From the sequence record MW341595: 64,000 nt of DNA; one strand, given 5' to 3'. The notes beneath the pieces were generated by a model, which worked only from the letters and a program-made list of their open reading frames with translations, ran no database searches and was not told the origin of the DNA. Shown in pieces: positions 19,935-24,251 of this stretch (position 1 is the first letter of the stretch; every line of letters begins with the position of its first letter). Source of the stretch: Shigella phage Sfk20. The translations under genes were made by a program, and so were the position numbers.

Positions 19935-19942
19935 TATTTATA
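19935..19942 (-). promoter_or_regulatory. late promoter TATAAATA upstream of soc
   Basis: Exact TATAAATA on minus strand about 30 nt upstream of soc ATG. Confidence 0.65.
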
Positions 19943-19976: not shown

Positions 19977-20495
19977 TTAATAACCTCGGTCTTGACGAGC
20001 GAAGTTTTCAGCATTTTTCAGATAATAAAGTTTAAAGATTTCTTCAGCCGTAAGACCGAGACCTTGGAACATGTTCAGAACGAAATGAAGAATATCAATC
20101 ATTTCGAATTTAATTTCCAACTGGTCTTGTGGAGATAAGTCAGTAATCAGAGTTTCACGACGTTCACCGTGTTGCGACTTCCAAGGCTTCCATACAGCAG
20201 ATGCATCTTTTTCGCCATTGCTCATACCACCAAGAGAAGTCAGAAGTTCGCGGAATTCATCATCAATATAATCTTTCTGATTACGCAGCCAATCAACAAC
20301 TTCACCTGCAGTAGCCAAATCATCAGGATGACGGTTATATTCAGGTTTATCTTTAGCTAAACGAACCTGCAGAGATTTCTGCATATCAAGCATAACTTGC
20401 AACGGATCTTTTTCATCACCGAGAATATCCCAGTATTCATTTTGAGCTTTATCAGCGCCTTCAATCAGTTGACTACATTCATTAAAGTAAGCCAT
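19977..20495 (-). CDS. 56: dCTP pyrophosphatase gp56 (MazG-like)
   Basis: ORF track 19977..20588 trimmed to ATG 20493-20495 (MAYFNECSQLIEGADKAQNEYWDILG...), 171 to 172 aa as T4 gp56; AAGGAA SD. Confidence 0.8.
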   Translation of the reverse strand: MAYFNECSQLIEGADKAQNEYWDILGDEKDPLQVMLDMQKSLQVRLAKDKPEYNRHPDDLATAGEVVDWLRNQKDYIDDEFRELLTSLGGMSNGEKDASAVWKPWKSQHGERRETLITDLSPQDQLEIKFEMIDILHFVLNMFQGLGLTAEEIFKLYYLKNAENFARQDRGY

Positions 20496-20529
20496 TATTT
20501 TTCCTTTCAATTCATGGGTTAGTAGATTA

Positions 20530-20553
20530 ATTATACAATAAATATATAAAGCA
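20530..20553 (-). promoter_or_regulatory. candidate MotA-dependent middle promoter upstream of 56
   Basis: Reverse complement TGCTTTA-11 nt-TATAAT. Confidence 0.5.
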
Positions 20554-20566
20554 ATAAGGAGGACAT

Positions 20567-20767
20567 ATGGTACAAAAATTAATGGCACTTGTTAATGCCA
20601 TAAAAGGTAATAAAAAACGTATAGCTTTTACTATTTCTGCTATGGTAGGAATTTTACTCTGGAATTTTGTTTTATCACCAATTGCTATTGCTCATGGTGT
20701 TAATATTCCAGTAATTACTCTTGATACATTCGTAGATTTAGCATTTGCTTTGGTTGGGTTAATTTAA
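20567..20767 (+). CDS. small membrane protein, 66 aa, plus strand
   Basis: ORF track; AAGGAGGA 5 nt before ATG; two hydrophobic segments; convergent with gene 61, stop codons overlap. Confidence 0.4.
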   Translation: MVQKLMALVNAIKGNKKRIAFTISAMVGILLWNFVLSPIAIAHGVNIPVITLDTFVDLAFALVGLI

Positions 20768-21792
20768 ATCTTAGCATATTTAGATAGCCGCATTTTAGCC
20801 ATCAACCCTTGGGCAATATTATTTTTCATATATTCCATAATTTGTTCAGGGGTTGCACCTTCCTTTCTAATCATATCATTAACATCTTTTGATTTCCAGG
20901 GAGATTTATCCCAAAACATAACCCTTTCTCCTGCATCAACTAATTTAGTCATTCGTTTAATAGTGTCAGGGTGACGAGGTTCATTATCTAAAACCCACAC
21001 ACGTCTATCTTTAAATGGAACAATTTCTAGGTCTAATTGACCACCCGTAATAGCTATACCATTTTCAATAAAAAGTGAATCTATAGGTCCTTCTAGAACA
21101 TATACATCACCATCTTTGACTCGTTCAACTCCATAGATTTTTGTTGCCTCAGGATAAGCTTTGATGGTGATATATTTTTGAGGAGCATCTTTCTTTAATG
21201 CACGTCCTTGAAAAGACTCGGCTTTTCCGTTAGCGTTATAAATTGGAATAACAAGACGAGGCTCGGGCATTTCCTTTTTATATGTTCCTGGCGCTATACT
21301 ATTAACTAATTTAGGCCATTCGGTTGTAAACCAAAGATATTTCCATTTATTCTTTGGAATACAACGAGCTTTTACATATTTTATAATTGGATGGTCTTCC
21401 GCCAGTTTATCTAATCTAATGCATGACGGAAGAGATTTAATTATTTTCTTCTCAGGTTGTTTAGGAAGTTCTTTAGGTTTTTCTACTGGACGACTTTTAC
21501 CTTTTTCTTTTCTTATTTCAAAGATATACTCACGATATAAATCAGGTTCAAACTCCTTTAAATATATTCCAATTGGTGCATGATAGTTACAGTTATAACA
21601 ATGAATATTTCCTTCATTATTATCGCCATAATACCATCCACGGGCTTTATTTTGATCGGTTTTTGAATCTCCACAAACAGGGCATCTAAACCGTAATTTA
21701 AAAGTTGAACTATTATTTACTTGTGCGAATTTAGGTAAATGAGCCAATGCACGGTATGCAAACTCATTATCAATCCAAGGTATTGATGACAT
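20764..21792 (-). CDS. 61: DNA primase gp61
   Basis: 342 aa as T4 gp61; zinc-binding CPVCGDS...CYNC and Toprim-like region. Confidence 0.95.
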   Translation of the reverse strand: MSSIPWIDNEFAYRALAHLPKFAQVNNSSTFKLRFRCPVCGDSKTDQNKARGWYYGDNNEGNIHCYNCNYHAPIGIYLKEFEPDLYREYIFEIRKEKGKSRPVEKPKELPKQPEKKIIKSLPSCIRLDKLAEDHPIIKYVKARCIPKNKWKYLWFTTEWPKLVNSIAPGTYKKEMPEPRLVIPIYNANGKAESFQGRALKKDAPQKYITIKAYPEATKIYGVERVKDGDVYVLEGPIDSLFIENGIAITGGQLDLEIVPFKDRRVWVLDNEPRHPDTIKRMTKLVDAGERVMFWDKSPWKSKDVNDMIRKEGATPEQIMEYMKNNIAQGLMAKMRLSKYAKI

Positions 21793-21794
21793 TT

Positions 21795-21959
21795 TTACTC
21801 TTCTTTTTCTTTAGATTCCTCTTTTTTCTTTTTAGGAATCTGTTCAGGACCTTTATTTACTACAGCGCCTGACGTTGTTCCAGTAGAGATATTTTCAGGA
21901 TTACCACCTGAATCTCCAGCTACCATATCTTCTTTGATAAATTCTTTAAACGTTTTCAT
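21795..21959 (-). CDS. small hypothetical protein (61.1 position), 54 aa
   Basis: Hand-translated MKTFKEFIKEDMVAGDSGGNPENISTGTTSGAVVNKGPEQIPKKKKEESKEKEE. Confidence 0.35.
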   Translation of the reverse strand: MKTFKEFIKEDMVAGDSGGNPENISTGTTSGAVVNKGPEQIPKKKKEESKEKEE

Positions 21960-21971
21960 ATTAGCCTCTAA

Positions 21972-22265
21972 TTATTCACCTACCACTTCAGCGATGATAT
22001 TTTTATTATTAAAGTTTTTATCGCAATACAGAACATAATTATACTGCATTACACCACCAGACTTAAGCTGTTTTTGCACTTCGGCTTTCATTTCAGGGCG
22101 ATCACGCTCAACGATATTCATAATATCTGCTTCAATTTGAGTTTCAACCTCAGTCTGATCTGCAGTCATAGACCATTCACACAAATCTTTGTCATAACCC
22201 GCCATAGCAGGCTGAGCAGCACAAGAAGATAAAGCAAAAATTGTAGCAAAGATAAATTTTTTCAT
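21972..22265 (-). CDS. sp: Spackle periplasmic protein
   Basis: 97 aa, same length and position as T4 Sp; N-terminal signal peptide MKKFIFATIFALSSCAAQPAMA. Confidence 0.7.
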   Translation of the reverse strand: MKKFIFATIFALSSCAAQPAMAGYDKDLCEWSMTADQTEVETQIEADIMNIVERDRPEMKAEVQKQLKSGGVMQYNYVLYCDKNFNNKNIIAEVVGE

Positions 22266-22291
22266 GATAATCTCCTCAGTAGTTTATGTTT

Positions 22292-22320
22292 ATAGTATCT
22301 CAATTTCTAATAAAAGTAAA
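22292..22320 (-). promoter_or_regulatory. early (sigma70-type) promoter upstream of sp
   Basis: Reverse complement TTTACT-17 nt-TACTAT. Confidence 0.55.
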
Positions 22321-22323
22321 CAG

Positions 22324-22623
22324 TTATTTTAAAACTTCTGCATAATCACATGTTACAAACTGTTTCTCTAACTTGGCGATTTTACGAAAGTATCTTTTGC
22401 ATTGACGAATCTGTCGCTTTGTAGGGCGCACAGCAAACTTAATAAATTCCACTCGACCAAATGGAGGGCTTTCTTCTGCCGGAATATCTAATACTAATTC
22501 CCACGTATCTGCAATAAGTGCTTTGAATTGAGTATTTTTCCTGACGTTATACGGTGTAGGTTTAAATAAAACAATATGCATATTATCCTCGGCAATCCAC
22601 TTCGCATACTTTCTTGTCATCAA
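22324..22623 (-). CDS. hypothetical protein (61.4 position), 99 aa
   Basis: ORF track; synteny only. Confidence 0.45.
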   Translation of the reverse strand: MMTRKYAKWIAEDNMHIVLFKPTPYNVRKNTQFKALIADTWELVLDIPAEESPPFGRVEFIKFAVRPTKRQIRQCKRYFRKIAKLEKQFVTCDYAEVLK

Positions 22624-22765
22624 TGAAAGCTTTAACTAATGCTTTATTAACTTCAGCATATTGAGTAGTAGCCCATTGAACGTCATCTTTCATCATTGTG
22701 ATTTCTTTAGTAAACATGCTTTCATTCTTAAACCACCCCATAAAAACTACCTTTACCAATTCCAT
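22583..22765 (-). CDS. dmd: Dmd-like protein (61.5 position), 60 aa
   Basis: 60 aa, same length and position immediately upstream of gene 41 as T4 Dmd. Confidence 0.6.
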   Translation of the reverse strand: MELVKVVFMGWFKNESMFTKEITMMKDDVQWATTQYAEVNKALVKAFIDDKKVCEVDCRG

Positions 22766-22794
22766 AACAATCTCCTCATTTAACCAACAAGACT

Positions 22795-22823
22795 ACTATA
22801 CCATAGTCTTGTCGGCTTGTAAA
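22795..22823 (-). promoter_or_regulatory. early (sigma70-type) promoter upstream of dmd
   Basis: Reverse complement TTTACA-17 nt-TATAGT. Confidence 0.6.
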
Positions 22824-24251
22824 CTAAAATTTTAATTCATTTGCCAAAGCATCTAACTGAGCTCGAGCTGATTCGTTTCTTTGATAGCGATTCTGTTCAG
22901 CCTGAATCTGCTGTGAACCTGCTACTTCGTTCACTTCGGTTGGAGTAGAATCTTGCTCAATTTCTACCCATTTTTGATTTCCTTTTTGAACACCCATCAA
23001 AAACTTATTCCATTTATTCTTATCACCATATCGTGATTTGATTTGCTTAATGAGTTGTTGTTCAGCGGCTGCTAACTCCTCGGTTTCAATGACCGCAAGC
23101 ATAAAATCGGCTGTTGCTGGAAGACCGGCAGATTCTGCAATATCGCTCATGTTAACATCAGAAGAATCCCAAGCTTGTTTACCAACTTGTGCTGCGGTCC
23201 AAAGAACAGTTTCGGTTTCAACAGCCAGAGCACGCAATTCCTCTGCGATAGCTTTAACAGTTGTGTAACTATTTTCTGAATAAACTCTAATGCGGCAAGA
23301 TTTACAAATACCCAGATAGTCAACAATAATGATTGTTGGAACAAAATTCTTCTTGAGCTTCAATTCATTCAAGAGAGACCTGAATGTATTAGCGTCTGCT
23401 CCACCAGTAGGATACTGTTTAACGATTAAACGGCCGAGAGTAGATTTCTCACGCCATTTTTCCATTTTTCCTTTATACTCAGCGTAAGAAATATGCCCAT
23501 CATCAATGTCATCAAGAGAAACATCAAGCATATTAGCATCAATACGCTTAGCACAGACTTCTTCTGCCATTTCCATGGAAATGTAAAGAACATTATGTCC
23601 GAGCTGCAAATAATCTGCTGCCAATGAACACAATCCTAATGACTTACCGACGTTAACACCAGCCATTAAAACGTTCAGTGTTCCAGTTTCAGCTCCGCCT
23701 TTAGTAATTTTATTTAGAATTTTGAGTCTAAATGGAACCTTACGAGCTTTATTCATATAAGATAGCCAACGTGCTTCGTAGTCATCCATCCAATCATGAC
23801 CAACGTAACTATCAAATGAAATTGATAATGCTTGGCGCATGATGTCAGGAATAGCACCAACATCCGGCATTTTCTTATTTCGTTTTTCCGGAGGAAGCTC
23901 AGCATTAGTTTGAATTTCAATTATTTTAGATGTGGCGTTAAACATCGCCCTTTGCTGAACATATTTTTCTGTTTCTTTTACTAACCAGCTGTGGTCTTCT
24001 GGAGAATCGGCTAGTTTCGAAATAAGTGTTTTTACACCAGAATATTCTGTTTCAGTAAATGAACTATTTTCTAATGCAACATTTAACGCATTAATAGATG
24101 GAACGCTATGGTACTCATTAACATGAGATTTAATTAATTTGAATGTATTTTTAGCTGGACCACTTTCAAAATATTCTGAATCCATATATGGCCAAACTTT
24201 TGAAAAATAAGCTTGATCAAATATGAGATGAGAAAGAATAATTTCTACCAC
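22824..24251 (-). CDS. 41: replicative DNA helicase gp41 (DnaB-like)
   Basis: 475 aa as T4 gp41; Walker A GVNVGKS. Confidence 0.95.
   Translation of the reverse strand: MVEIILSHLIFDQAYFSKVWPYMDSEYFESGPAKNTFKLIKSHVNEYHSVPSINALNVALENSSFTETEYSGVKTLISKLADSPEDHSWLVKETEKYVQQRAMFNATSKIIEIQTNAELPPEKRNKKMPDVGAIPDIMRQALSISFDSYVGHDWMDDYEARWLSYMNKARKVPFRLKILNKITKGGAETGTLNVLMAGVNVGKSLGLCSLAADYLQLGHNVLYISMEMAEEVCAKRIDANMLDVSLDDIDDGHISYAEYKGKMEKWREKSTLGRLIVKQYPTGGADANTFRSLLNELKLKKNFVPTIIIVDYLGICKSCRIRVYSENSYTTVKAIAEELRALAVETETVLWTAAQVGKQAWDSSDVNMSDIAESAGLPATADFMLAVIETEELAAAEQQLIKQIKSRYGDKNKWNKFLMGVQKGNQKWVEIEQDSTPTEVNEVAGSQQIQAEQNRYQRNESARAQLDALANELKF

Follow-up and report, generated by a model that had tools for sequence, protein, structure and literature searches.

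Between the DNA primase gene 61 and the replicative helicase gene 41, phage T4 carries a run of small genes in the order 61, 61.1, 61.2, sp, 61.4, dmd, 41. We analysed the corresponding genes in Shigella phage Sfk20 (record MW341595), at positions 21,795 to 22,765 of a 64-kb window, by which we mean the whole stretch of 64,000 nucleotides that was examined. The block reads 61.1 - sp - tifA (61.4) - dmd (61.5), and it is very probably the orthologue of the T4 early gene block, in a Tequatrovirus phage that lacks adfA (61.2).

Several of the T4 genes have described functions. Dmd inhibits the RnlA toxin of the Escherichia coli rnlAB system (PMC9391042, PMC3014915). Because of this inhibition, rnlAB restricts only dmd-deficient T4. 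An early promoter upstream of dmd drives dmd together with 61.4 (PMC9391042). Gene 61.4 was identified as tifA in 2022: toxIN restricts T4, which escapes through amplification of dmd-tifA, and TifA binds ToxN (PMC9391042). A basic C-terminal helix, capped by P53-T54, lets TifA bind RNA as well, and ToxN becomes trapped in a ribonucleoprotein (PMC10853763). The TifA variants K55A/R56A/R59A and P53A/T54A lose function, and residue 41, at the predicted ToxN interface, tunes the strength of the protein, with F41S and F41H improving T4 TifA (PMC10853763). The TifA homologues of T2 and T6, >96% identical to T4 TifA, neutralise ToxN when overexpressed (PMC10853763).

The product of sp, Spackle, is called an early gene product (PMC7677548). 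Mature Sp comprises Gly23-Glu97 with a Cys29-Cys81 disulfide, and binds the lysozyme domain of gp5 via helices α1, α4 and α5 (PMC7677548).

The T4 region 'may be an anti-TA island' (TA, toxin-antitoxin), and its other genes have been named 'attractive anti-toxin candidates' (PMC9391042, Srikant, Guegler & Laub 2022); the same paper remarks on adfA close by. A counter-defence role of the neighbours of dmd is thus already known: tifA and adfA were tested and published in 2022-2024. The first-pass annotation of the Sfk20 stretch had proposed the unassigned neighbours of dmd as good candidates for counter-defence genes. Stated in this way, a cluster of textbook T4 genes adds little. The proposal holds for 61.4, which is TifA, a published ToxN inhibitor, but 61.1, gp23-like and widespread, fits it less well.

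The block is orthologous to the T4 early genes

The block, its promoters and its two flanking genes are as follows (aa, amino acids; ORF, open reading frame).

20764-21792, minus strand: gene 61, DNA primase; 342-aa ORF, 97.7% identity to T4 gp61; labelled primase in KNP5, SHFML-26 and T2
21795-21959, minus strand: 61.1; 54 aa, 53/54 identical to T4 gp61.1; phrog_1823 6.8e-34
21960-21971, minus strand: spacer between sp and 61.1; 12 nt, TTAGAGGCTAAT on the minus strand
21972-22265, minus strand: sp (spackle, 61.3); 97 aa, 95/97 identical to T4 Sp; PF25676 6.8e-45
22292-22321, minus strand: candidate early promoter of T4 type upstream of sp; GTTTAC-N18-TACTAT
22324-22581, minus strand: tifA (61.4); 85 aa, 83/85 identical to T4 TifA; PF23945 (DUF7279) 2.1e-20; phrog_2375 6.8e-38
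22583-22765, minus strand: dmd (61.5); 60 aa, 60/60 identical to T4 Dmd; PF17587 1.6e-46 over residues 1-60
22795-22824, minus strand: candidate early promoter of T4 type upstream of dmd-tifA; GTTTAC-N18-TATAGT with a TGG extension
22824-24251, minus strand: gene 41, replicative helicase; 475-aa ORF, 99.4% identity to T4 gp41

According to the ORF list, all block genes lie on the minus strand and are read leftwards between gene 61 and gene 41. The four ORFs that the first-pass annotation had listed here are all present, and its naming of Sp, 61.4 and Dmd is borne out by alignment with the T4 proteins (95/97, 83/85 and 60/60 identical residues). The alignments of all four proteins with T4 are free of gaps, at 98-100% identity. 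Two of the proteins also match solved T4 structures. Sp matches 6x6o (2.2e-61), 7cn6 (1.4e-46), 6xc0 and 6xc1, and Dmd matches chain B of PDB 5hy3, 'Antitoxin Dmd' (1.8e-37). For TifA no solved structural relative was found, and no NCBIfam model matches any of the four proteins.

The locus is common among T-even phages. A 1.2-kb query around the block matches 502 T-even phage records at 90-98% nucleotide identity, with KNP1 and KNP5 as the best nucleotide matches (98.3% over 1.2 kb). The gene order is shared with T4, KNP5, SHFML-26 and T2. Compared with T4, the dmd-tifA operon, sp and 61.1 are the same in genes, order, strand, spacing, promoters and coupling. The differences are the absence of adfA, so that 61.1 abuts sp, and five substitutions (A13S and K53E in Sp, V69A and I83V in TifA, I26T in gp61.1). 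The T2 locus has the same flanks as the window; both carry a plus-strand 66-aa ORF downstream of gene 61, and the gene 56 side of the window is T2-like. No RNA family was found in the whole 64-kb window at the Rfam gathering thresholds. No result contradicts the T4 orthology of the block.

The adfA slot is empty

T4 carries adfA (61.2, 627 bp; PF23813 1e-135) between 61.1 and sp. In the window only 12 nt separate sp from 61.1. The junction alignment identifies them as the final ~12 nt of adfA, in which the AGAGG ribosome-binding site of 61.1 lies. The gene does not lie elsewhere in the window either: a tblastn search of all 64 kb with T4 AdfA and with T2 gp61.2 gave no match. The first-pass annotation overlooked this absence.

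The empty junction between 61.1 and sp is shared by 24 of ~500 related phage records, among them RB3, RB7, RB10, KNP1, KNP5, W143 and SA20RB, and the junction in these records is identical or near-identical. An AdfA at least 90% identical to that of T4 is encoded in 232 of the ~500 records. T2-type phages differ from both: in T2 the slot holds a short adfA-like gene of 357 bp, and its 118-aa product is akin to AdfA's C-terminal half only (34% identity; PF23813 7e-8). Judging from these records, the slot exists in at least three states among T-even phages, namely full adfA (T4), the short T2 form, and empty. The 12 nt that remain agree with an exact deletion of adfA, without proving that the gene was lost rather than never present.

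AdfA is an anti-DarT factor, but a T4 adfA deletion shows no DarTG1 phenotype, and AdfN (gp30.3) is the main anti-DarTG1 factor (PMC11257639). Hence the absence of adfA is unlikely to be dramatic. As one of the minority of phages without adfA at this locus, Sfk20 is a natural test case for the weight of AdfA next to AdfN.

Dmd and TifA

The first gene of the early operon directly downstream of gene 41 is dmd, followed by 61.4. Given its complete identity with the characterised T4 protein, the Dmd of the window would be expected to inhibit RnlA and LsoA. It would bind these RNase toxins and replace their labile antitoxins.

The ATG of tifA, at 22581, lies one base past the dmd stop codon (TAA-T-ATG), with GAGGA just upstream. 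The arrangement is that of translational coupling between dmd and tifA. The first-pass annotation was right to place 61.4 here, but its length of 99 aa does not stand; the protein has 85 aa. The longer version, from a TTG at 22623, is an over-extension whose first 14 codons overlap dmd (41 nt). Its alignment with T4 begins at residue 15, and the PHROG and Pfam matches begin at or after residue 15. In T4, KNP5 and T2, 61.4 is annotated as 85 aa, and the 85-aa protein is the experimentally active form (PMC9391042). An open frame from the TTG does exist, but the ATG at 22581, following GAGGA and the dmd stop codon, is the typical coupled arrangement. We give practically no credence to a true start at TTG 22623.

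The TifA of the window keeps F41, P53, T54, K55, R56 and R59. By analogy with T4 it would bind ToxN, as well as RNA, through the basic helix at its C-terminus and would trap ToxN in an inactive ribonucleoprotein. KNP5 differs at residue 41. It carries Ser41, a naturally stronger ToxN-inhibiting allele (PMC10853763), whereas the window has Phe41 as in wild-type T4. A single copy of tifA with the F41 allele would therefore be expected to fall short against E. coli toxIN, so that toxIN would restrict the window phage as it restricts T4. For annotation, 61.4 is here best named tifA, 85 aa, weak F41 allele.

Residue 41 of TifA is polymorphic among very close relatives, and the Ser41 of KNP5 is the substitution that T4 acquired experimentally for better ToxN inhibition. 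The KNP5 RefSeq record (NC_055713.1) mislabels gp61.4/TifA as 'DNA polymerase' and gp61.1 as 'major capsid protein', by transfer.

Sp

The signal peptide of Sp comprises residues 1-22, and the mature protein Gly23-Glu97. The gap-free alignment with T4 shows that Sp of the window retains the export signal, Cys29 and Cys81, and the contact residues S32-A35, Q37 and N76. Of the two substitutions, A13S lies within the signal peptide. By our reading of the named contacts, K53E lies outside the interface helices. Sp is thus expected to act as in T4: it would be exported to the periplasm and inhibit the gp5 lysozyme of superinfecting T-even phages.

Residues 12-15 of Sp (22221-22232, minus strand) read L-S-S-C (L-A-S-C in T4) and resemble a lipobox; the accepted cleavage site AMA/G, where the slash marks the cut, lies downstream of them. 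The record of phage PEC04 annotates Sp as a lipoprotein, and published work treats mature Sp as soluble.

Two candidate early promoters

Early promoters were searched with the pattern GTTTAC-N16-19-TAnnnT. Both sites in the block fit GTTTAC-N18-TAnnnT, a form built from what we take to be the T4 early-promoter consensus. The search pattern occurs 22 times in the window, compared with 3.3 ± 1.8 occurrences expected from shuffles (maximum 10). Twenty of the 22 sites lie on the minus strand. All genes that were looked at in this section of the window read in that direction, as do all annotated genes in the matching first 50 kb of T4. The sites at 22292-22321 and 22795-22824 both belong to this enriched and strand-biased class, in agreement with the two early promoters that had been proposed at 22292-22320 and 22795-22823. 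Other minus-strand sites include 2156, 2644, 7140, 12316, 19616, 28293, 53154 and 62507. With the 20 minus-strand sites, a map of the window's candidate early promoters is at hand.

A generic sigma-70 scan detects the site upstream of dmd (22823 to 22795; TTTACA-17-TATAGT, extended TG, 10/12 matches). The same scan did not report the site upstream of sp, which scored 8/12. Both promoter sites and the intergenic regions are conserved in T4, T2 and SHFML-26. In the sp promoter region a 2-bp indel downstream of the -10 element is the sole difference among these phages, and in the dmd promoter region 2 of 81 aligned positions differ from T4.

Other signals were sought as well. A terminator scan of 21500-23100 found none; therefore transcription probably reads on into gene 61. 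The MotA-box pattern of middle promoters has 23 sites in the window, none of them within the block. The late-promoter motif TATAAATA has three sites in the window, none near 61.1; one of them lies upstream of soc, at 19942, as expected.

By analogy with T4, the host sigma-70 RNA polymerase would, right after infection, transcribe dmd-tifA from the promoter at 22824 to 22795, and sp-61.1 would be transcribed from the promoter at 22321 to 22292.

A few points weigh against an unqualified transfer of T4 function to the block. The -10 element of the sp promoter is weak (TACTAT). Promoter activity, transcript ends and the read-through into gene 61 are all deduced from sequence. K53E reverses a charge in Sp, and TifA of the window carries V69A and I83V, its only differences from TifA of T4.

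gp61.1 is similar to the N-terminus of mature gp23

The 54-aa gp61.1 has three segments: an N-terminal MKTFKEFIKE, a conserved core (DMVAGDSGGNPENISTGTTSGAVVNKGPE) and a tail rich in Lys and Glu. In BLASTP, residues 2-38 align with residues 57-93 of T4 gp23 (17/37 identical, E 4e-9). The prohead protease gp21 removes the first 65 residues of gp23, cutting after residue 65 (PMC9546572). In the alignment, I8-K9-E10/D11 of gp61.1 falls exactly on this cleavage site, L63-T64-E65/A66 of gp23.

The similarity is recovered from the family alone. We built profiles from family-only alignments, with gp23 left out. For a profile of 14 family members, gp23 is the only PDB match (E 1.5e-7). A hidden Markov model (HMM) of 24 long-form members, without T-even sequences, finds gp61.1 of the window (3e-19) and residues 37-103 of T4 gp23 (1.9e-12) among 2203 ORFs. 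By these comparisons gp61.1 is homologous to gp23 residues ~57-101, a segment spanning the prohead-protease site and the N-arm, and its core is homologous to the N-terminus of mature gp23 (residues 66-93). This relationship is absent from the literature searched, and we regard it as a modest lead.

[quoted passage not shown] An AlphaFold2 model of gp61.1 alone has low confidence (mean predicted local distance difference test, pLDDT, 61; predicted template modelling score, pTM, 0.21) and contains short helices only. This agrees with the disorder of the corresponding gp23 region in the head before expansion.

The N-terminus of gp61.1 has a second likeness. MKTFKEFIKE matches the capsid targeting sequence (CTS) of the internal proteins IPII and IPIII, MKTYQEFIAE, at 7/10 positions, and both end in I-x-E. 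In this sequence residues 4 and 7 determine targeting, and residues 8 and 10 determine processing (PMC9026906). gp61.1 keeps aromatic residues at 4 and 7, Ile at 8 and Glu at 10. The N-terminus of gp61.1 is the sole CTS-like peptide of this type when the window is translated in all six frames.

The likeness to IPII, IPIII and gp23 has limits. These proteins have a small residue after the cut, whereas gp61.1 has the acidic Asp after its putative cut. The mature forms of the internal proteins are basic, and the putative mature fragment of T4-type gp61.1 is not. Unlike these comparators, gp61.1 has 54 aa and belongs to an early unit with no late promoter nearby; its packaging and cleavage are putative. 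The RefSeq label 'major capsid protein' on the 54-aa gp61.1 presumably stems from the similarity to gp23. Both this name and 'DNA polymerase' for gp61.4 (KNP5) are misleading.

The gp61.1 family spans the Straboviridae

In tblastn searches the gp61.1 family appears in 1398 phage records across the Straboviridae, with hosts including Escherichia, Klebsiella, Acinetobacter and Aeromonas. The window, T4, T2, KNP5, SHFML-26 and five of six distant loci inspected all have the gene directly upstream of gene 61. Krischvirus FL04 has two small ORFs between 61.1 and gene 61, and in Aeromonas phage 31, 61.1 is the sole gene between 41 and 61.

An exhaustive HMM search gave 53 family representatives at 50% identity. 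Short forms have 50-70 aa. Long forms have 130-165 aa and consist of a conserved N-terminal domain of ~100 aa, a linker and the shared module. A Pfam search of the long-form homologues gave no match, and an HMM of their N-terminal domain had no match to the window, to T4 1-50 kb or to the T4 head genes. The 28-residue core is nearly invariant across the 53 representatives and the 1398 phage records. A Glu stands 1-2 residues before the MVAGD core in all 64 members with a recognisable module, and the position two before that Glu (P3) is L, I, V, M or F in 59 of the 64, as in a gp21-type [L/I]-x-E site.

Possible roles of gp61.1

The literature searched holds no functional study of gp61.1. We consider it a real, if tentative, possibility that gp61.1 is a head-associated peptide: the CTS-like N-terminus would target it to the prohead core, and gp21 would cut I8-K9-E10/D11 and release a 44-aa mimic of the N-arm and N-fist of mature gp23. 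This proposal draws on the position of I-K-E at the gp23 cleavage site, the gp23 matches of the family-only profiles, the published targeting and processing residues of the decapeptide, the conserved Glu with its hydrophobic P3 before the core, and the spread of the family through the Straboviridae. Other observations argue against it. 61.1 lies in an early unit, with early promoters upstream and no TATAAATA late promoter near it, although early gp61.1 may persist until proheads assemble. Asp or Glu, not a small residue, follows the putative cut, the mature T4-type fragment is not basic, the AlphaFold model has low confidence (pLDDT 61), and the literature searched gave no report of gp61.1 in heads. 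If gp61.1 does enter proheads, one of the best-studied pathways of virus assembly would have a component that has been overlooked.

The proposal can be widened to the family, in a form that we find possible but rather doubtful. A Straboviridae-wide family would copy gp23 residues ~63-101, with the protease site and the N-arm/N-fist, and carry them on an internal-protein-type CTS in T-even phages or on the ~100-aa domain in other genera. Its members would reach the prohead core, gp21 would cut them at the invariant Glu, and they would act in head assembly or as a packaged, possibly injected peptide, not as a toxin-antitoxin countermeasure.

A further counter-defence factor, for example an early decoy of the gp23 N-terminus that blunts a host sensor of gp23, or a toxin neutraliser, is an unlikely role for gp61.1. 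It would suit the place of 61.1 in the block called a possible anti-TA island (PMC9391042), and gp61.1 resembles Dmd and TifA in its early expression, small size and lack of enzymatic activity. Capsid proteins are known to trigger bacterial immunity (PMC9712102; Gol-Lit, PMC3014915), and the similarity to gp23 would suit a decoy. However, the family spans diverse hosts and is kept upstream of the primase gene at the inspected loci, while dmd, tifA and adfA are patchy accessory genes, and the literature searched holds no experimental link. The stretch shared with gp23 also appears to end near the point where the Gol segment begins. The wide spread, the adjacency to the primase gene and the homology to gp23 therefore favour a role in the head over host-specific counter-defence. 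It is more improbable again that 61.1 is a functionless remnant of gene 23, or a leader ORF for translational coupling to gene 61. The gene 61 start does lie 2 nt after the 61.1 stop codon, and the purine-rich 3' end of 61.1 (…GAAGAAGAGTAA) must hold the ribosome-binding site of gene 61. Yet the near-invariant 28-residue core shows selection on the peptide. In other genera, moreover, 61.1 and gene 61 are 36-57 nt apart or have other ORFs between them; hence the coupling is not conserved.

Observations elsewhere in the window

With T4 proteins as queries, tblastn found no dam, segF, segA or beta-glucosyltransferase in the 64-kb window. Gene 56 (dCTPase; 19977-20767 area) is only 73% identical to T4, compared with 95-99% for its neighbours, and the arrangement is more T2-like than T4-like. 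The hydrophobic 66-aa ORF downstream of gene 61 (20567-20767, plus strand) lies on the strand opposite to all its neighbours and shares 4 nt with the 3' end of gene 61. The records of KNP5, SHFML-26 and T2 ('similar to RB69ORF029w') call it hypothetical, and no Pfam family matches it.

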